From positions 1 through 58,618 of the forward strand of contig CAZVXF010000008.1 in NCBI GenBank assembly GCA_964630875.1: DNA of 58,618 nt, in the 5' to 3' direction. The first letter of the stretch is position 1, and every line of letters begins with the position of its first letter. The notes beneath the pieces are model-generated. The model had not been told where the DNA came from and ran no database searches. It was given only the letters and a program-made list of their open reading frames with translations. Origin of the DNA: an uncultured bacterium. GTDB taxonomy: Bacteria; Chlamydiota; Chlamydiia; Chlamydiales; SM23-39. Of this stretch, positions 51,198-58,618 are shown in pieces. The position numbers and the translations under genes are program-made.

Positions 51198-52500
51198 GCT
51201 TTTTCCTCTGTTTGATTGCGATACTGTACAGCTTAACTACTTGTTCAACATGTGTTTGGATACTAGGAATACGGCGGTCATCTGATTGAAGATACCCACC
51301 ATTGCCGATTTTTAAAGCAATCTGAGGATCAGAAACGATTCTTGTCATTTGCTCTGCTAGACTTTTTGGATTTCGAAAGTTAAATAACAATCCATTCATT
51401 TCATGATGAACATATTCCCCCATCCCCCCAAAGTCGGCCGTGATAATGGGAACTTTTGCTTCTAAAGCCTCATGAATGACAAGGGGTGAATTTTCTCCCC
51501 AAATAGAAGGGACAACGATCGCATCGACATGGTTAAATACCTCTTCGATCAGCATTTGATTTCGATAGCTTCCCATCCAAAAAATACGACTCTGAGCGAC
51601 CGGGTCCATTGTCATAATGTAAGACTGTAACGATTGAGTAAATGGCTGTACGGGAGCTCCCCAAATTTTAAGCTGCGCATTTTGATAGGTTTCTTTGAAT
51701 GCCTGTAAAAGATGAAAAATCCCTTTTGCTTGTTTATGGGTGCCAATGTAGCCAAAAACAAAATCTTTCTCTTTTTTTCGATTTCTTCCCATGAGCCTTT
51801 CTCGCTGAAACCCATAATCGAGGTAGACAATTTTGGAAATGTCCACATCGAAATCTTTGACAAATCGGTTCATTAAGTAGCGTGAAGGTGCAATAAAAAG
51901 GTCCACCAAGGATGTGATTTCTCGAACATGCTCCATCCGTTTTCCAACCCAGTTTGTCCAATACTTAATGTCCTCTTGATCTTCTGGACTTGAAAAATAA
52001 CGCCAGTAACACTGCTTGGCACATTTTTCATCTTGTTGAGAATCGCAAGATGGATAAAGATCTTCTGTCTTAGAATGAATTCCCTGCAAAAATTGACCAC
52101 GAGGGCACATGAGCCAAAAATCATGCAGAGTAAATACAACCGGAATGTTTCTATAATTAGCTTCGAAAACTAAAGAAGTTGAAAGATGATTTAAATGCCC
52201 AACATGAACAACATCGGGCTCACATGCGTCCAAGAGCTGTGAGAACGCTCGATCCACTTCAGGATGCCTATACCCATCCTTCCCATGAGCCATGTTTATC
52301 AAACAAATTTTGATCTCTTGGCACATTGGATCAAACTCCCAATCCATAGAGTATTCTTGTTTATACGCATTTTCTTGTCGTGTGAATACAATAACCTCAT
52401 GGCCCTGTTTAGCTAATTCGTGACACAAAGTTTGCGAATAGATCTCTGAGCCCGCGTTGTATCGGGTGGGATACCCATGAATAACCTTCAAAATCTTCAT
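51148..52500 (-). CDS. GT4 family glycosyltransferase with Cys-rich insert
   Basis: HGYP..AGSE, TLHDFWLMCPRG and PSIWGENSPLVIHEA. Confidence 0.92.
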   Translation of the reverse strand: MKILKVIHGYPTRYNAGSEIYSQTLCHELAKQGHEVIVFTRQENAYKQEYSMDWEFDPMCQEIKICLINMAHGKDGYRHPEVDRAFSQLLDACEPDVVHVGHLNHLSTSLVFEANYRNIPVVFTLHDFWLMCPRGQFLQGIHSKTEDLYPSCDSQQDEKCAKQCYWRYFSSPEDQEDIKYWTNWVGKRMEHVREITSLVDLFIAPSRYLMNRFVKDFDVDISKIVYLDYGFQRERLMGRNRKKEKDFVFGYIGTHKQAKGIFHLLQAFKETYQNAQLKIWGAPVQPFTQSLQSYIMTMDPVAQSRIFWMGSYRNQMLIEEVFNHVDAIVVPSIWGENSPLVIHEALEAKVPIITADFGGMGEYVHHEMNGLLFNFRNPKSLAEQMTRIVSDPQIALKIGNGGYLQSDDRRIPSIQTHVEQVVKLYSIAIKQRKKHEDRTSRKTRPLAYHI

Positions 52501-53036
52501 AACTTCTTTTATTCAGACGATTCGGGTCGAAATGCTAACTAAAAAAAACTTTTTACACCATAAAAAACACCCCCTCGAGCAGGTTCACTTCTTTCACCAG
52601 CTTCTCGAAGAAAACATTCACAGGTTGTTTTTCTCAATTCGACAACCCAAAAAAGCTGACACTTTTTTTCTGCATTACTAAAGGAAACATGCCAAGCTCT
52701 TGATCAATTCATCGCTCTTCCCATGCCTAAGCCGGGCGACGGCGATCTAGATGTACATTTTATCCTTTTGAATCTTATTACTCTAAAAGCTCAAGAACAA
52801 CGTTTTAGAGGGAATCAGGAAATTGAGCTGACTCTCACTCTGTCTGCTCTGCCCCTCCTGAAGAAAGTGAAAGTAAACAATTATTCTAAAGCAATCAGCT
52901 ACTTTCAGCGTTATAACCCTAATGGGGGGATTGAGTAAATCTTTCGGCCATTGAACAAAAAACCACTTGACCTGATCCACAGAAACAATAGAGGTACAAA
53001 ATTCTCGAGGTGAAAAAGCCATTTATGTCCCTTATG

Positions 53037-53064
53037 GGAATTAAAAATGGCTCCATTCGTCCGA
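53037..53064. repeat. Array repeat R1 (flank only)
   Basis: GGAATTAAAAATGGCTCCATTCGTCCGA versus GGATCAAAAAYGGCTC.A.TC.TCCGA in R4/R5. Confidence 0.7.
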
Positions 53065-53266
53065 ATTAATTAGATGTTTTGAGAAATACGACCCCTTCTT
53101 TTTCAAACGATTTGTCGATGTTTTGATAAGGAATACGCGTAGGTCACTTATAATCAGCAATATGCACCAAACACGCCCTCACAAAATAGTAATTATTTAT
53201 GCATTGAAAAATAAATAAAATAAATGGTATAATTAAACTTTATAATTAATATTAATTAAGGCTTAA

Positions 53267-54727
53267 ATGATCTCCTCAATTAGATCTGGATATAGCAATC
53301 GTTTAACAAGTGCATGTATAGCTACCTGCTCAGTCTCACTTAAGAACTGTAGTACTATTGCAAAACTTTCGTTGAATGCTCTCTATGAGAGGAAATCACG
53401 ACTCATCCCTATTAGACAGGAAATGGTATGCATTCAAGATGAATTGGCTGCAACAATCAAGGAGAGTACTGAGCAATCAAGGCAAATAGATGCTGATTTA
53501 GAAAATCATCGAAAGGAAATTCATCGTCGAACAGAACATCCTAACGCCTCTTTCTTGGAGCCAAGCAAGTTGTCTTCAAAAAATAACGACTGGAATCATA
53601 GAGATAACATCCCACTTTATTTGATAATTGAAATTATTGTAGTTGCAACGTGTTTTTATAGATGTTATCAATATCAAAAACATTGTAAAGAAATCATAGA
53701 TCTCTCATCCTCAGAAAATTTGCCAAACCTTCGAAACAGAGTATGCGTTCCAATTTTCATATCGGATACAGACGCTATACTCTATGGTCTCTTTGTAAAT
53801 CTGGGAGCCCCCCATTTTGGGATAAGAGAGTTAGATTCTATGGGGGTAGTCCCCATTATTCGAAAGATCTCTCACCCAGAAGAAGCGCTTTCTATATTGG
53901 ATCAATTAAGATCTCAAAACAATGAGATCCCCATTTTGATTTTGTTGGGGCATGGTAACACACACAGCATAGAAATGGGAGGAGGGAAAACATTGAATTC
54001 TAACCTCCTTGCACGCGCGCCACTTTCACCTAATGCGCATATCATTCTGTATAGTTGCTCTACAGCACAGGAAACACCCAATTTTTATTCTTTGGCAAGA
54101 AAAATTTCTTTGTTGAATCCAGATGTTTTAGTCAGTGCTTCTCGAAGAAATGTCTGTGCAGGTCTCCCTTGGGAACCCTTCGGTATTTCTTTCAGGAAGG
54201 ACCCCTCCGGAAAACTTTTGGCTAAAATTTATATGCCCGATGAGTTCGGGACCAATCAAGTCACTCAATACAAAAATGGCCGCTATCAAACCGAAGGAGA
54301 TGGCCAAATTTCTCTAGCAATGAGATATTGCTTAGGAAAAGTAGCAAAAGTATGTCCAATAGTAGATGCATTCTTTCCTATGAGTACCCCTGTTGAAAAA
54401 TCAATACCGCCTGGGGAAATAGAATCAGCCCTCTTCCAAGTAGCCTCTTGCCTTACGAATCCTTTTTACAAGAGCCAAGAGTTCTGTCGACGGATTCGTG
54501 CATGTGAAGTGAACAATTCAGAAACAAAAGTCACTCAATTAGCGAGAAAAACTTCTCTTATTATGTCCTGGATTGGATGGACTACTTTAGCATTAATGAC
54601 TACCTTACCAGGCTTTGCTTGCTTCGCACTATTAACATGGATGCGAACTAAAACCTCCTTAAAACTTAAAGAAAATTCCGAGCTAAGACCTTTTAGAACT
54701 AGGTATACAGCAATAGAAAACTCATGA
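53267..54727 (+). CDS. Membrane-anchored protein with putative clan CD (caspase/CHAT/C80-like) protease domain
   Basis: ILILLGHG...IILYSCST; coiled coil and hydrophobic segments. Confidence 0.65.
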   Translation: MISSIRSGYSNRLTSACIATCSVSLKNCSTIAKLSLNALYERKSRLIPIRQEMVCIQDELAATIKESTEQSRQIDADLENHRKEIHRRTEHPNASFLEPSKLSSKNNDWNHRDNIPLYLIIEIIVVATCFYRCYQYQKHCKEIIDLSSSENLPNLRNRVCVPIFISDTDAILYGLFVNLGAPHFGIRELDSMGVVPIIRKISHPEEALSILDQLRSQNNEIPILILLGHGNTHSIEMGGGKTLNSNLLARAPLSPNAHIILYSCSTAQETPNFYSLARKISLLNPDVLVSASRRNVCAGLPWEPFGISFRKDPSGKLLAKIYMPDEFGTNQVTQYKNGRYQTEGDGQISLAMRYCLGKVAKVCPIVDAFFPMSTPVEKSIPPGEIESALFQVASCLTNPFYKSQEFCRRIRACEVNNSETKVTQLARKTSLIMSWIGWTTLALMTTLPGFACFALLTWMRTKTSLKLKENSELRPFRTRYTAIENS

Positions 54728-54763
54728 TTGGAACCGACCATCATGGATTCCCTCACTTGAGTG

Positions 54764-54870
54764 AAAAAACGTAGAGCTATTTCGTCCGATAGATTATCAG
54801 AAACCGTATCTTTTTGGTGACGCATACCGTCACTTCAGACAAGCTGGTTTTTCAATGCGAAAAACATCGC
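54764..54870. repeat. Array repeat R2 (degenerate)
   Basis: TTCGTCCGATAGATT..AACCGTATCTTTTTG..hairpin..AAGCTGGTT..AAAACATCGC follows the R4 layout. Confidence 0.6.
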
Positions 54871-54871
54871 A

Positions 54872-55030
54872 ATACTGAAATGAATTCAAAAATTGAAATT
54901 TTGACAAAGAGGCGGCGCATATTTTGGTGTTTGCAGCGAATGACCATTGGACTTGTCCAAGGCATGAGCGAAAACCCAAAATATGCTGCCAAGTCCAACG
55001 CAGTCAAAAACCAATTTTTGAGTTTATTAT
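54872..55030 (+). mobile_element. ERIC-like palindromic MITE, copy 3
   Basis: ATGAATTCAAAAATTG...CAATTTTTGAGTTTAT ends; TTGACAAAGAGG...CAACGCAGTCAA; GCGAATGACCATTG..CAAGGCATGAGCG. Confidence 0.8.
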
Positions 55031-55792
55031 TGAAAAAGTTGCGAACACGCATTTGTATACTTATTTAAAGGAGCACTCAATTTCACAAGCAATTACTCTG
55101 ATAATCCCTGTTATTTGGAATATAATTGTTTGTGTACATAATACTCATAAAGTTTGCGATATAGAATATGATGAAGACAAGTGGATTGAGCATGTTCTGC
55201 ACACACCTTTTGCTCTTGCTGATGCAAGTGAAGAGATTAGAGGCAATAGAAAAATAGTTCTGGCTGCTGTTCAGAGAAGTAGCTGGAATCTTCAATGGGC
55301 GTGTAAAGAGCTTCTAAACGATCCTTATTTTATGCTCGCCGCTATCCAAAAAAATGCAACAGCTTTTGAATGGGCAAGCGAAGAGCTCCGTGGTGACGAA
55401 GAAGTGGTTTTTCCGCGATTCAACAGAACGGCACAGCACTTGAGTGGGCAAGCGAAGAACTTCGTAGCAATCGAGAAATCGTCCTAACCGCTGTCTTAGA
55501 AGATGGTGATGCAATTTTCTATGCCAGCGAAGAGCTTCGTGATGACAAGGAGATTGCTCTGATCGCAATCAACCAAGCTTACGATACATTATCTGCTTGC
55601 AAGGCTCTCAGAAATGATAAGGAAGTAGTTCTTGTTGCAGTTCAACAAAGCGGCTGGGCTCTAGAATGGGCAAGTGAAGAGCTTCGAGGGGACAGAGAAA
55701 TCGTCCTTATCGCTATTCAGACTTCTCCCTGGGCGCGGAATTTGATACTTCAACTTGCAAGCAAGGAACTTAGAGAAAAATTTTCAATCTGA
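55031..55792 (+). pseudogene. DUF4116-repeat gene, 5'-truncated and frameshifted
   Basis: ASEELRxDxEIVLxAV repeats in two frames, joined at the T5 run 55408-55412; stop 55790-92; native start not evident. Confidence 0.82.
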
Positions 55793-55810
55793 ATTATTTA
55801 ACGCCTTCTT

Positions 55811-55974
55811 TATACCGAAATAACCTGAAGAATCGGTTTTTGACTGCGTCGTTTTTTTCTCAAAAATGGCATTCTCACTCGTGCCTTGCGATTCCGCAAT
55901 GGTCACTCGCTCCGAATGCAATTTTTGAGAAACTTCCTTGTCAAATTCCCGATTCTTCAGGTTATTTCGGTATA
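55811..55974 (-). mobile_element. ERIC-like palindromic MITE, copy 4 (best preserved, 164 bp)
   Basis: Perfect 26-bp TIR TATACCGAAATAACCTGAAGAATCGG; nested inner stems; TA at both ends. Confidence 0.9.
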
Positions 55975-55977
55975 TCC

Positions 55978-56032
55978 AACCGGACTCCTTTCTGGCGAAG
56001 CGAGCCGATGCGGCTCGCCCTCGTTCAGAAAG
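55978..56032. repeat. Array repeat R3 (left part lost at the MITE)
   Basis: 55979-56032 is 48/54 identical to 58333-58386. Confidence 0.85.
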
Positions 56033-56069
56033 TTAACGGCTTTTTCGGCCTTTTTGACTCAAGGAGAAG

Positions 56070-57095
56070 CTATTTTTTTTCTCGAATGAGAAGATTAATC
56101 AATGTTAAAGGTTTTACAACAGCTTCCTGTCGACCGTGAATACGAATATCTCCGGCATAATCTCTTAAATATTTCTCTTTTTGAGCGAGAGGAAAATAGG
56201 TTCGCGCCCAGGGGTCGCATAGAATACTGTCTTGGCTATTTCTCGGACCAATAATAATAAAGCTGTGATCACCAAATAGAATTGAATAAGATTCGCAAGT
56301 TGTTGCGTGAAGGATTTCCGGATGTTTATCATTGAGGAGTTTTAAACCCAGCCTTGCAATCTCCCGACAATTACCTTCGCCAATATGATTATGAGACGAT
56401 AACCTTTTCCTCAAAGTTTCTTGATATTCGGAATCGCTCATTTGATCAACATCAAGTTTACCCCGAAAATAATTCATTGGTAGGCGATCTTCAGTGAGCT
56501 TTAAGATTTCTTGAGCGATAGAAATATTTTTTCTCATCTCAGGCGAAATCGCTTGAGGAAGATTTGCGAGATATTTGCTTCCGACTAAGATAGTGTGTGT
56601 TTCGGCTTGAACAGAAAGGCTTTTAACAAGCAAGGAAACACCAAATACGCCAAAGCAGGCTCTTGCAACGCGTACAAAAATAGATGATGATTTCCTATAA
56701 AAAAGAGCTGTCGCTAAAGGATAAATGCTAGCTAAAGATAAAGCAGTCCAATTTAGAACATCACTCTGTTTTTTTGTGTTATCGCATTTTAGTACTTTAT
56801 AACTTACGGTTTGCGGAATTCTATAACTTGTCTCACTTTGAGGAGTTTCTGATTTAATAGCAGATGTAATAGGAAAAAATAGCAAATCCGATTCCGACTC
56901 CGGAAATAACATTTTTTGAACAGATTCTAGGGTAACTTCATAGGAATCGGGCCAGACAATTTCTTTTTCTGGTCCATGAATCACTCTCAAAGACTTAGTA
57001 TATCCTCTTCTTAACCTCACTAGAGGTTCCGGATAATATTTTCCGAAAGCTGCAGCACAGCCAGTAAGAATAAATTTATCTATAAAAAAAGACAT
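56070..57095 (-). CDS. Putative effector with Cys-His-Asp papain/transglutaminase-like domain (HopX/AvrPphE-like)
   Basis: GNCRE, DHSFIIIG and CDPW; hydrophobic hairpin; AGGT before ATG 57095. Confidence 0.7.
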   Translation of the reverse strand: MSFFIDKFILTGCAAAFGKYYPEPLVRLRRGYTKSLRVIHGPEKEIVWPDSYEVTLESVQKMLFPESESDLLFFPITSAIKSETPQSETSYRIPQTVSYKVLKCDNTKKQSDVLNWTALSLASIYPLATALFYRKSSSIFVRVARACFGVFGVSLLVKSLSVQAETHTILVGSKYLANLPQAISPEMRKNISIAQEILKLTEDRLPMNYFRGKLDVDQMSDSEYQETLRKRLSSHNHIGEGNCREIARLGLKLLNDKHPEILHATTCESYSILFGDHSFIIIGPRNSQDSILCDPWARTYFPLAQKEKYLRDYAGDIRIHGRQEAVVKPLTLINLLIREKK

Positions 57096-57242
57096 TTTAC
57101 CTGTTTTTTGTGAAGATTTTAACATGAAAACAGAAAAAAAAATAAATACTAAAAAACGAAACATCTGACGAGATCTATCTAAAAAATTATATTAAATTGA
57201 TAATAACTATCTAATTTGTTTTTTTTCATTGACAGCCCTGAT

Positions 57243-57371
57243 CGGGATCAAAAATGGCTCTACTCTTCCGATTGGTTGCAGGTAACCGGACTCCTTTTGC
57301 CCGGGCGAGCGAAACGCTCGTCCCGTCGGGCAAAAGCCGGTTCGTCGGGTTTTGCTCACGCAAAACATCGC
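57243..57371. repeat. Array repeat R4
   Basis: 57243-57293 is 43/51 identical to 58291-58341; AACCGG-ACTC-CTTTTGCCCG...CGGGCAAAAG-CCGGTT stem. Confidence 0.88.
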
Positions 57372-57372
57372 C

Positions 57373-57546
57373 TATATCGAAATGAATTCAAAAGTTGGAA
57401 TTTTGTCTAGGAGACGGCGCAGATTTTGGCGTCTGTCTGCGGAAACGAGAAAAAACATGTTTTTTCTCGAGGAGCAGGTGAACGAATGTGAACCGGGTCG
57501 GACGACCACGCCGATAGGCAAGGCGCGAATGAAGACCCAAAATATG
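57373..57546 (+). mobile_element. ERIC-like MITE, copy 5 (extra nested hairpin, right end lost)
   Basis: TATATCGAAATGAATTCAAAAGTTGG..CGGCGCAGATTTTGG..CCAAAATATG aligns to 54872-54985. Confidence 0.75.
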
Positions 57547-57570
57547 AGAAGCGGTAAAAGAGGCACCATT

Positions 57571-57603
57571 TAAAAATAGAAGAGTCAGAAACTGACTCCT
57601 CTA
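57571..57603 (-). terminator. Intrinsic terminator
   Basis: GAGTCAG-aaa-CTGACTC stem, with a T-run on the minus strand. Confidence 0.65.
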
Positions 57604-57621
57604 CTCCCTAATTGGCACAAG

Positions 57622-58206
57622 TTAGAACAGATTCTGATAAGGGAATTTCTCCTCAGCGATTTTAACTACGGCTTTTAGTCGTTCCTCTTTTTGGATGAGA
57701 ATCCTTATTGTACTCCTGAAATTTCCAAAGGAAATAGAAGTCACCTCACAACTTTCCATTAACATAGCAGCTGCCGATAAGTTTAGCATTTTAGTCTTCA
57801 TTTCGATTTGGTTTTCAAAAAAAGTCTTTAATTCTGGATCTGTAGTGTTTGATAAAATTGCAATGTCGGAATCGATTTCTTTCCTTAGACGCTGAAACTG
57901 TACCCTATGGAATTCTTCATACAACTTAGCCTGCGAGCTATCCTCATGCGAAGTTTTAATGGCAGTAGCGTTCCACTTTGCAAATTCTGCTCGTATATAG
58001 TCTTTTCTAGCTTTATCTACCTTTAAATCTGCCCCTTTCTGCACTAAGGAGGCTAAAAAGGGAAGATTTGTATACCTCTCTTCAGCTCCCTTGGGAGCTG
58101 GATTCGAAATCCCTAAATCTAAAAGTTTAAAAACTTCTATTGGTCCCAGAGTTGTTATTGCACTTAGAAAGGGTCTGCTGTTCGCAGTCATTGAGCTTCT
58201 TATCAT
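57622..58206 (-). CDS. Hypothetical helical protein
   Basis: 194-aa ORF, AGGT ribosome-binding site, TGATATAAT promoter and own terminator. Confidence 0.72.
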   Translation of the reverse strand: MIRSSMTANSRPFLSAITTLGPIEVFKLLDLGISNPAPKGAEERYTNLPFLASLVQKGADLKVDKARKDYIRAEFAKWNATAIKTSHEDSSQAKLYEEFHRVQFQRLRKEIDSDIAILSNTTDPELKTFFENQIEMKTKMLNLSAAAMLMESCEVTSISFGNFRSTIRILIQKEERLKAVVKIAEEKFPYQNLF

Positions 58207-58290
58207 AGTAAATACCTGTTGTTTTATTATTTAATAAACGTAATTATATCAGTTATCTTGATATTAATTCAAGCATTAAATATTTGAATA

Positions 58291-58507
58291 CCGGATCAAA
58301 AACGGCTCAATTCGTCCGATTGATTGCCGGTGACCGGACTCCTTTCTGGCGAAACGAGACGAGACGGCTCGTCCTCGTCCAGAAAGCCGGCTACGGGCTG
58401 GCGCCCTTCGCTTCTCGTCCTAAAAAAGCTTCGCTTTTTTTCACCGGCAAAAACAAAGAGAAAAAGCCGGGAGGCTTTTTCTCTTTGTTTTTGCAGGCAA
58501 TCGGACG
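58291..58507. repeat. Array repeat R5 (most complete; tRNA-like fold on the minus strand)
   Basis: GCCGGTGA/TCACCGGC stem, CCGG/CCGG stem, internal hairpins, and outer CGTCCGATTG/CAATCGGACG inverted repeat. Confidence 0.88.
58447..58494. terminator. Perfect 22-bp hairpin (terminator-like)
   Basis: GCAAAAACAAAGAGAAAAAGCC-ggga-GGCTTTTTCTCTTTGTTTTTGC. Confidence 0.6.
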
Positions 58508-58517
58508 TAATCAGAAC

Positions 58518-58618
58518 GTGCGACACGAGGTCGCTGGAGGGAATTGTCTCTATCATGGGACCGCTCCTACTGCGGAGTGAATCTAGGGCCCTGAATAAAG
58601 CAGCGGGCCCGACAATAT
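58518..58618 (+). mobile_element. Possible 5' end of a group II intron (truncated by the window)
   Basis: GTGCGACACGAGGTCGC start followed by GC-rich hairpins (ATTGTC...GACAAT, GGGCCC...GGGCCC). Confidence 0.4.

Follow-up and report, generated by a model that had tools for sequence, protein, structure and literature searches.

A gene-less folded module carrying tRNA 3' tails in a family of Chlamydiota, and a candidate array of serine-recombinase cassettes docked on its copies

The window, that is, the whole stretch of DNA analysed here (58,618 nt), is one contig (C8) of a chlamydial genome assembly of 1.37 Mb in 52 contigs, which is 90.9% complete; C6 and C43 denote other contigs of the same assembly, and G-numbers the genomes of relatives. 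The tmRNA gene lies at positions 3-369 of the window and, together with 26 tRNAs, makes up the tRNA set that ARAGORN, which was also used on one sequence at a time to call the tRNA and tmRNA neighbours discussed below, finds in this genome. Between 53001 and 58518 the window carries an array of repeats (R1 to R5), interspersed with open reading frames (ORFs) of cargo and with relics of the 3' end of a gene for a large serine recombinase (LSR). The features of this array, including the parts of R5, are the following:

53001-53063, plus strand: R1, an LSR 3'-end relic (ILEVKKPFMSLMGIKNGSIRP) found by tblastn, without a tail
54760-55030, minus strand: R2, a strongly decayed core with a nested MITE-like insert, a degenerate tail and an LSR-end-like block (ATCTATCGGACGAAATAGCTC)
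55979-56040, minus strand: R3, only the variable palindrome and GAGTCCGGT (tail nt 57-65), then unrelated sequence
56070-57164, minus strand: cargo ORF of 364 aa
57238-57294, plus strand: LSR 3'-end relic (LIGIKNGSTLPIGCR and a stop) found by tblastn, overlapping the R4 tail
57277-57411, minus strand: R4, the 3' part of the module (core, palindrome and tail GAGTCCGGTTACCTGCA), covariance model E 2.6e-7
57622-58206, minus strand: cargo ORF of 194 aa, co-oriented with the module
58292-58333, plus strand: LSR 3' relic, the last 13 codons (RIKNGSIRPIDCR) and a stop, with a tblastn match at 58295-58342
58325-58448, minus strand: R5, a module copy of 124 nt, identified by a covariance model match (89.2 bits, E 3e-21), by its fold and by homology to modules behind tRNA genes
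58325-58341, minus strand: tail of R5, GAGTCCGGTCACCGGCA, equal to tRNA nt 57-73
58342-58386, minus strand: variable palindrome of R5, CTTTCTGG...CCAGAAAG
58387-58392, minus strand: AGCCGG motif of R5
58395-58406, minus strand: small stem of R5 (GGGC GCCA GCCC)
58417-58420, minus strand: T-side complement GGAC of R5, after hp1
58422-58440, minus strand: hairpin hp1 of R5, AAAAAAGC/GCTTTTTT
58442-58448, minus strand: 5' strand of R5, GCCGGTG
58449-58493, no strand assigned: hairpin T, identical to the hairpin directly 3' of tRNA-Leu(CAA) at C6:61469
58494-58518, minus strand: Q joint, GTTCTGATTACGTCCGATTGCCTGC followed by AA, read as the P half-site of an LSR attP plus host flank

The letters quoted for R5 in an earlier note on this DNA match the minus strand of the sequence, and the coordinates 58325-58448 were recovered independently. 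On that strand, hp1 is followed by AGGACGAGAAGCGAA, then by GGGC GCCA GCCC, by GTA, and by GCCGG. The 124-nt unit folds with -58.3 kcal/mol (z -3.7; 0 of 200 shuffles as stable), and its 241-nt context yields z-scores of -7.2 on the plus and -7.0 on the minus strand, again with 0 of 200 shuffles as stable on either strand. The adjoining hairpin T is a perfect 20-bp palindrome between an A-run and a T-run, resembling a two-way terminator, and its stem can be extended into the tail and the 5' strand of the R5 module; its counterparts in other copies have different stems, with compensating changes. R5 was rejected as a genuine tRNA gene: ARAGORN reports only the tmRNA and no tRNA in the window, a single hairpin replaces nt 8-48, and the TTC of the T-loop is replaced by GAAAG. 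At the gathering score of Rfam, only the tmRNA passes and the repeat has no match; at E <= 10, the region 52400-58618 gives only miRNA-like matches to the long hairpin, all far under threshold.

The earlier note had seen in the repeat a mimic of tRNA-Leu, expected its last 17 nt to recur at the 3' end of a tRNA-Leu, and was prepared to abandon the idea if no tRNA of this or related genomes had a similar end and more copies gave no support by covariation. The idea holds, since GAGTCCGGTCACCGGCA is identical at 17 of 17 positions to the 3' end of the genome's own tRNA-Leu(CAA) (C6:61385-61468). Exact copies of this 17-mer occur four times in the 1.37 Mb, namely in tRNA-Leu(CAA) itself, at C6:65503, at 58325 of the window and at C43:2845, where by our own arithmetic one 17-mer would be expected by chance about 1.6e-4 times on the two strands. 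The tail of R4, GAGTCCGGTTACCTGCA (57277-57293), has two mismatches to GAGTCCGGTCACCGGCA, as does the tail at C6:65854, and no assembled tRNA of this genome ends in this R4 sequence.

R5 is one copy of an apparently undescribed, gene-less folded module of ~95-190 nt, which is nearly always found immediately downstream of a tRNA or tmRNA gene; a full-text literature search, judged from listings and abstracts, returned no description of such a module. In the sense of the tRNA, it begins with a spacer made of an A/T palindrome or a terminator-like hairpin, followed by the exact complement of the acceptor 3' strand and by hp1, a stem of 9-10 bp with many compensating variants. It then continues with GT, the complement of nt 57-65, a conserved core (GAAGTGA, an internal hairpin and GAACCGG) and a variable GC-rich palindrome (CYYTC...GARAG), and closes with the tail, which starts at or beside nt 57 in the 29 copies inspected. 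As nt 57-73 are present in both inverted and direct form, each module duplicates the tail of a tRNA and, in this lineage, also the flank following it. A covariance model built on 11 copies served to search for the module, and gave 11 matches in this genome (E <= 2.6e-7). Among 57 copies, 92.2% of the cells pair versus 64.0% in shuffles (0 of 500 reach the observed value), and slid controls reach at most 50%; changes on both sides are found in all 23 pairs. These figures are generous, given an alignment fitted to the model and genomes that share ancestry. For hp1, 97.9% of the cells pair, and both-side changes are seen in all 9 pairs.

These data bear out the tRNA-like topology claimed in the earlier note, as the acceptor stem, the one arm at the 7/49 position and the T-side stem are all real; the acceptor-like stem (7-8 bp), the first hairpin and the T-side stem are backed by covariation across the 57 copies, and the compensatory G:C to A:T swap that distinguishes R3 from R5 can be recognised by eye in their inner palindromes. 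The assignment of GCCGG to the 5' strand of the T-stem has to be corrected, however, as it belongs to the AACCGG/AGCCGG motif, which is unchanged whichever tRNA is concerned (Phe, Lys, tmRNA). Covariation with tail nt 57-65 is found in the segment directly after the first hairpin, which reads GGAC in R5, CTGGAATC with tRNA-Phe and GAGAGAATC with the tmRNA. Nor is the repeat specific to the array and to tRNA-Leu, as had been supposed: the module is family-wide and stands behind at least 11 kinds of tRNA and tmRNA genes. In this genome alone, modules lie directly behind tRNA-Leu(CAA), tRNA-Leu(TAG) and tRNA-Phe, each with the last 17 nt of its own tRNA and their complement.

The covariance model finds the module in 52 of the 103 genomes of the family, with up to at least 30 copies per genome and ~290 scored matches in all. 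In a phylum-wide sample of 151 genomes it was detected in 19. Within the family of the window these are its own genome and 6 of 19 further members; in a second family, some of whose genomes are single contigs, 11 of 22 carry the module, and in a third, 1 of 3. The second and the third are sister families, and none of the 106 genomes from 24 other families had a match. The repeat sequence is also present in three soil-metagenome DNA runs from one study, and no RNA run was among the runs listed; the joints on the contigs of these metagenomes reach only 22-27 nt on their short sides, may originate in other copies, and were left out of the evidence for mobility. The linkage to tRNA genes was counted on 51 module matches, which are the best ones and not a random sample: the end of a tRNA or tmRNA gene lies within 60 nt upstream on the same strand in 30 of these 51, and within 400 nt in 36. 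The neighbours have 11 identities in all (Phe 8, Lys 6, Leu-TAG 5, Met 4, Tyr, Leu-CAA and Thr-CGT 3 each, and Pro, Ser, Leu-TAA and tmRNA 1 each), and the tail has at most one mismatch to the neighbouring tRNA in 21 of the 36 modules. Among 12 apparent orphans, the tRNA is cut off by the start of the contig or locus in seven, a second module lies upstream in one, a Q joint in three (R5, C43 and C6:65373), and the start of a contig in one.

The site behind tRNA-Leu(TAG) is polymorphic within the genus, where two of seven genomes have it filled and five have neither hairpin nor module; the flanks of filled and empty sites are too diverged to align, even within genera, so that the exact borders are not fixed. 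In the two filled genomes, tRNA-Leu(TAG) itself has the C68 of the module, and with it an A5.C68 mismatch. The same hp1 variant is found behind Phe, Lys, Pro and Ser genes. This variant and the polymorphism at tRNA-Leu(TAG) indicate many moves of the module from one tRNA gene to another, with both arms matching the tRNA each time. We know of no mechanism that moves a module between tRNA genes with both arms matched. Several known kinds of mobile or structured elements were considered and dropped. A MITE with fixed terminal repeats, a hammerhead and a T-box were put aside on reading the sequence. A palindrome-associated element of the IS200/IS605 type was rejected since Y1 transposases do not co-occur with the module: Y1_Tnp is found in 40 of the 103 genomes, 21 of the 52 with and 19 of the 51 without the module, showing no association, and it was not found in the module-rich G022, G074 and G111. 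Extra tyrosine integrases were likewise discarded as movers, several module-rich genomes having only two. Within 1.5 kb on either side of 40 module loci, no recombinase gene was recurrent. The only recurrent neighbours were housekeeping genes and a putative DUF1016/YhcG-like nuclease gene, read from sequence (seven frames at six loci, two of which are overlapping stretches of one place).

A different class of recombinase lies at the tails themselves. The block 3' of the tail in R5, R4, R1 and C43 encodes the C-terminus of an LSR on the opposite strand, and the fragment on C43 ends in ...EPFMTLMGIKNGSIRPIDCR, its stop codon falling within the tail complement. This C-terminus has a match in 20 of 61 family genomes, the window's own included, and an intact homologue of 501 aa carries Resolvase, Recombinase and Zn_ribbon_recom domains. 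In relatives, intact LSR genes (503-533 aa) end on intact tRNA-Leu(CAA), tRNA-Tyr and tmRNA genes, and in G113 an intact LSR of 596 aa ends on the tail of a module behind tRNA-Ser. An LSR gene thus lies beside the site in the form of relics here and of intact homologues in relatives; the genome under study, at 90.9% completeness, has 0 Resolvase matches and no intact LSR. Two types of joints recur: an attL-type joint (tail, GCAA, LSR end) in R5, C43, R4 and at a real tRNA of G073, and an attR-type joint (Q arm, GCAA, hairpin) in R5, C43 and C6. The Q arm, which would be the P arm of the recombinase, is identical at 15 of 22 positions to the reverse complement of the LSR-end (P') arm; GCAA is the core common to all 8 aligned joints, and the arms form imperfect inverted repeats around it. 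This arrangement of Q arm, GCAA and LSR-end arm has the look of an attP site of an LSR, with inverted arms around a short core. As GCAA corresponds to tRNA nt 71-74, integration there would leave the tRNA whole. The suggestion that the repeats are remodelled att sites at a tRNA 3' end is therefore supported by the exact tRNA-Leu(CAA) tail abutting LSR relics, and by the intact homologues of relatives that end on real tRNA and tmRNA tails as well as on a module tail.

Across the family, the presence of an LSR and that of the module are not associated. LSR domains occur in 20 of the 103 genomes, 12 of the 52 with the module and 8 of the 51 without it, and among the 31 LSR loci of relatives only 2 lie close to a module. 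The module-rich genomes G022, G105, G106 and G111 contain only two tyrosine recombinases and, except for G106, no LSR match, so that the module exists independently of the LSR.

Within the window, the right side of R5 is bounded by the Q joint (58494-58518), which we read as an attR-type joint: its 22-nt Q arm, the shared GC, AA and then the hairpin are found again at C43 and at C6:65313. On the left side, the LSR relic has its TGA stop inside the tail complement, and its stretch IKNGSIRPIDCR is identical at 12 of 12 positions to the C43 fragment (tblastn); together with the tail, we read it as an attL-type joint. Further into the array, R4 has neither 5' strand nor hp1, its nested MITE-like insert runs on to ~57560, and its architecture is the same as that of C6:65559-65870. 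The LSR-end likeness in R2 (ATCTATCGGACGAAATAGCTC) was read by eye and tblastn did not recover it. R1 forms the distal edge of the array, beside glycosyltransferase and radical-SAM genes. As in accreted islands, the tails at 58325, 57277 and 55979 (the last one partial) bound the cargo ORFs, neither of which (57622-58206 with 194 aa, 56070-57164 with 364 aa) matched a protein family. Units with no cargo at all stand behind tRNA-Phe and tRNA-Leu of this genome, as would be expected of docking units that accrete or of CIMEs. We therefore read 53001-58518 as a probable decayed accretion array of LSR cassettes docked on tail copies.

We consider it rather probable that R5 is a copy of the tRNA-tail module and that the array consists of decayed LSR cassettes that docked on tail copies used as attB. 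According to this scenario, a tail and the flank following it would form the attB of tRNA-targeting LSRs, and cassettes carrying such an LSR would have docked on successive tail copies and later decayed. The joint to the right of R5 would then be of the attR type, composed of the P arm, the shared GCAA and the host hairpin, and that to the left of the attL type, in which the tail and GCAA lead into the final LSR codons on the other strand. R5 itself would be host DNA (hairpin, module and tail) enclosed by two successive cassettes, with the right end of the first on one side and the left end of the second on the other. Recombination presumably took place inside the shared GCAA (tRNA nt 71-74), and the modules may offer additional landing pads, so that the tRNA is spared. 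A bolder version, which we hold to be rather unlikely, makes the module a gene-less selfish mimic of attB that spreads between tRNA genes without a dedicated recombinase, both arms being re-templated from the tail of the new tRNA through replication or repair in the host, or with the help of borrowed recombinases; each move would then create landing pads on which serine-recombinase cassettes accumulate.

The module could instead be primarily an RNA, a tRNA-like molecule transcribed together with the tRNA or after it. RNase P would cleave its acceptor/T minihelix at the 5' strand and RNase Z would cleave behind A73, and recombinases would have come to use the module secondarily. At the level of sequence and fold, an acceptor/T minihelix with a discriminator base is indeed present; the module is co-oriented with the tRNA and directly downstream of it, its topology copies that of a tRNA with hp1 placed exactly at the acceptor/T junction, and the GAAGTGA and GAACCGG motifs are conserved and single-stranded. 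The strong covariation of hp1 (97.9% of cells, 9 of 9 pairs), a stem not derived from the tRNA, also fits an RNA, as does the excess of G:U over A:C in the helices (54 vs 22), a count that rests on the model-fitted alignment; the conserved hp1 and core would likewise fit an RNA of the sense strand. Yet the sense strand, which folds better in 45 of 53 modules, loses this advantage once composition is controlled for (32 vs 21, p 0.43), and in many copies a terminator-like hairpin stands between the tRNA and the module. The tail is moreover identical to that of the neighbouring tRNA, an identity for which a generic minihelix would have no need. The 11 positions at which the acceptor stem of the tRNA has a wobble pair or mismatch are particularly informative: at 9 of them the 5' strand of the module is the Watson-Crick complement of the tail, at one it follows the tRNA's own 5' strand and at one neither, and the G3.U70 of the tmRNA and of tRNA-Met becomes A3:U70 in the module, erasing the wobble. 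The 5' strand is thus an inverted copy of the tail and not a copy of the 5' half of the tRNA, which favours an inverted repeat templated by DNA over a selected tRNA copy. We therefore give the primacy of an RNA only a low probability.

The module might also be a part of the mobile LSR element, namely its attP arm, and arrive with each cassette, in agreement with its position between cargo and tail in R5, C43 and C6. This appears quite improbable to us given that most modules lie directly behind a tRNA without any cargo, that 40 of the 52 module-bearing genomes have no LSR, and that the arm at the LSR end is mirrored by the Q arm and not by the module. In G013 the borders of the cargo consist of a tail and of a Q-type arm plus tail, and a module is lacking there; in G113 the order of tRNA, module, tail and intact LSR puts the module outside the element. 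An origin without any function would be offered by template switching during replication at palindromes behind heavily transcribed tRNA genes, with the tail pattern as a mere by-product. The order of direct, inverted and direct tail with palindromic junctions resembles, from general knowledge, inverted triplications; the arms are perfect Watson-Crick copies, and G193 has seven identical tandem module units, all of which would suit such a process. However, the same hp1 and core are found behind different tRNAs and in three families, pointing to modules of one origin that were not made anew at each tRNA, and the hp1 stem has been kept through many compensating changes; we give this origin, too, very little credence. 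Docking of cassettes on tail copies of a module that exists independently of them thus remains our preferred reading.

LSR att sites such as those of phiC31, Bxb1, A118 and SCCmec Ccr have imperfect inverted-repeat arms of ~22 bp around a short shared core, and attL and attR are hybrids of a host arm and an element arm. The chlamydial joints are similar in their inverted-repeat arms and in the shared GCAA core, but differ in that the target is the extreme 3' end of a tRNA, that the integrase frame runs into the site, and that the tail copies of modules would act as extra attB. The attC sites of integrons are palindromic sites at cassette boundaries, too, in which structure is conserved over sequence and the arms pair when single-stranded. 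The module shares with them the palindromic form and the position at cassette boundaries, yet, judged by reading, its arms are a tRNA tail and its complement instead of RYYYAAC/GTTRRRY boxes; this genome has no integron integrase and only two tyrosine recombinases, both on other contigs, and the cassettes of the window lie in both orientations and have recombinase relics of the serine type. With neither R''/R' boxes nor IntI, an integron attC was rejected. RNAs of the mascRNA type, which are cut by RNase P and Z, and viral tRNA-like structures lack a normal anticodon arm but possess an acceptor/T minihelix and a discriminator base. The module resembles both in its minihelix and in the lack of an anticodon arm, and is known here from DNA alone; in contrast to both, its acceptor sequence copies that of the neighbouring gene and erases its wobble pairs. 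CIMEs, finally, are gene-poor, att-flanked and without a recombinase of their own, offer further docking sites to related elements, and are thought to be decayed islands. As in CIMEs and in accretion in general, the module would be a docking unit without recombinase, but it differs from CIMEs by its conserved folded core, its matching inverted arms and its re-fitting to many tRNAs.

The closest published case that we found is that of the ssrA islands of Dehalococcoides, as far as the accessible part of that paper describes them: tandem islands downstream of the tmRNA gene, each bounded by a ~20-bp direct repeat of the 3' end of the gene that starts in the T-loop, with a conserved motif just upstream of each repeat, a serine recombinase gene on the reverse strand beside attL, and units without integrase that are explained by accretion (PMC3146451). 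Compared with what that part of the paper describes, the chlamydial repeat is set apart by sitting in a folded conserved module with an inverted copy of the tail, by targeting at least 11 tRNA and tmRNA genes, by the overlap of the last LSR codons with the tail, and by the majority of modules that have no cargo at all.

The present data would add a further layer to the biology of this family, in that a conserved, gene-less folded module, found in half of the family's genomes and behind at least 11 tRNA and tmRNA genes, seems to multiply the docking site itself. Genes for tRNAs are classic docking sites of genomic islands, and the usual picture comprises an integrase, the tRNA and a short direct repeat. 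An LSR subfamily with defined attP and attB at tRNA ends would also represent a set of candidate natural site-specific integrases. The perfect matching of the arms to each new tRNA, with the hp1 junction kept, may reveal a new copying mechanism. For the chlamydial genomes that bear it, the module would explain why assemblies break behind tRNA genes, how arrays of cassettes could accumulate without damage to the tRNA, and why relics of recombinases occur a long way from any tRNA.

The array at positions 53001-58518 holds, besides its modules (folded, gene-less units ending in a direct copy of a tRNA tail), a second repeat family, a rod-like element of ~165 nt, whose copies include the following:

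55810-55975: rod-like element
~57411-57560: copy inside R4, a partial or decayed module
54872-55028: copy inside R2, likewise partial or decayed
C6:65608-65773: copy inside a module on another contig of the assembly

The element (55810-55975) has terminal inverted repeats of 25 bp (ATACCGAAATAACCTGAAGAATCGG ...) and a fold of -77 kcal/mol (z -13.5), and Rfam returned no match for it. BLAST found 30 matches in the same genome, several of them near full length and the majority consisting of the terminal repeats only. In the three soil-metagenome DNA runs that contain the R5 module sequence, its summed contig depth was 465-2072 versus ~10 for its flanks, which were many and unlike one another; the element is therefore abundant in the sampled soil community. 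It also sits at an identical nested position in three modules, which shows that the copying of these modules took place at the DNA level.

In a relative, G193, seven identical tandem module units of 148 nt each, plus an eighth, divergent unit, stand behind a tRNA-Phe-like gene (C1:568690-569723, locus L132). This tandem set indicates that amplification was recent.

The cargo genes of the array are the following:

54924-55790, opposite in orientation to the modules: DUF4116-repeat gene (E 1.7e-15)
56070-57164, minus strand: ORF of 364 aa
57622-58206, minus strand: ORF of 194 aa
53267-54727, plus strand: ORF of 486 aa

The DUF4116-repeat gene is not one open frame, as a single-frame reading of 54924-55793 meets six stop codons. 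Pfam assigned no family to the other three products; the pattern ...HIGEGNC...DH... in the 364-aa product is tentatively reminiscent of a cysteine protease. Two genes named from reading their sequence neighbour the module on contig C43 of the same genome, and one of them has its second copy inside the array on C6:

C43:510-1037: putative group II intron reverse-transcriptase-like fragment
C43:3079-3869 and C6:63066-63971: duplicated gene (HHPIS.LEFK...)

Behind the Phe tail of tRNA-Phe modules, loci L031 (genome G020) and L132, which belong to two different families, have the same cargo-element start (..CTTGCCGG..TAGATTTCCTTAAATCACCC..), followed in L031 by a frame read as a putative DUF1016/YhcG-like nuclease. 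No recombinase was seen within 1.5 kb of this cargo. The shared start suggests another tail-targeting element.

One tmRNA gene marks the contig edge:

1-369: contig start and, on the minus strand, the tmRNA gene, its 3' end 2 nt from that start

In relatives, a module lies 3' of the tmRNA (G013) or a large serine recombinase gene overlaps it (G077), and the assembly break here is probably due to the same kind of repeat. Finally, tRNA-Leu(TAG) carries C68, hence an A5.C68 mismatch in the acceptor stem, in both module-bearing genomes (C4:4192-4277 here; locus L098 in G002), and T68 in five module-free genomes of the genus. In the two module-bearing genomes, the module version has apparently replaced the original tail of this tRNA.
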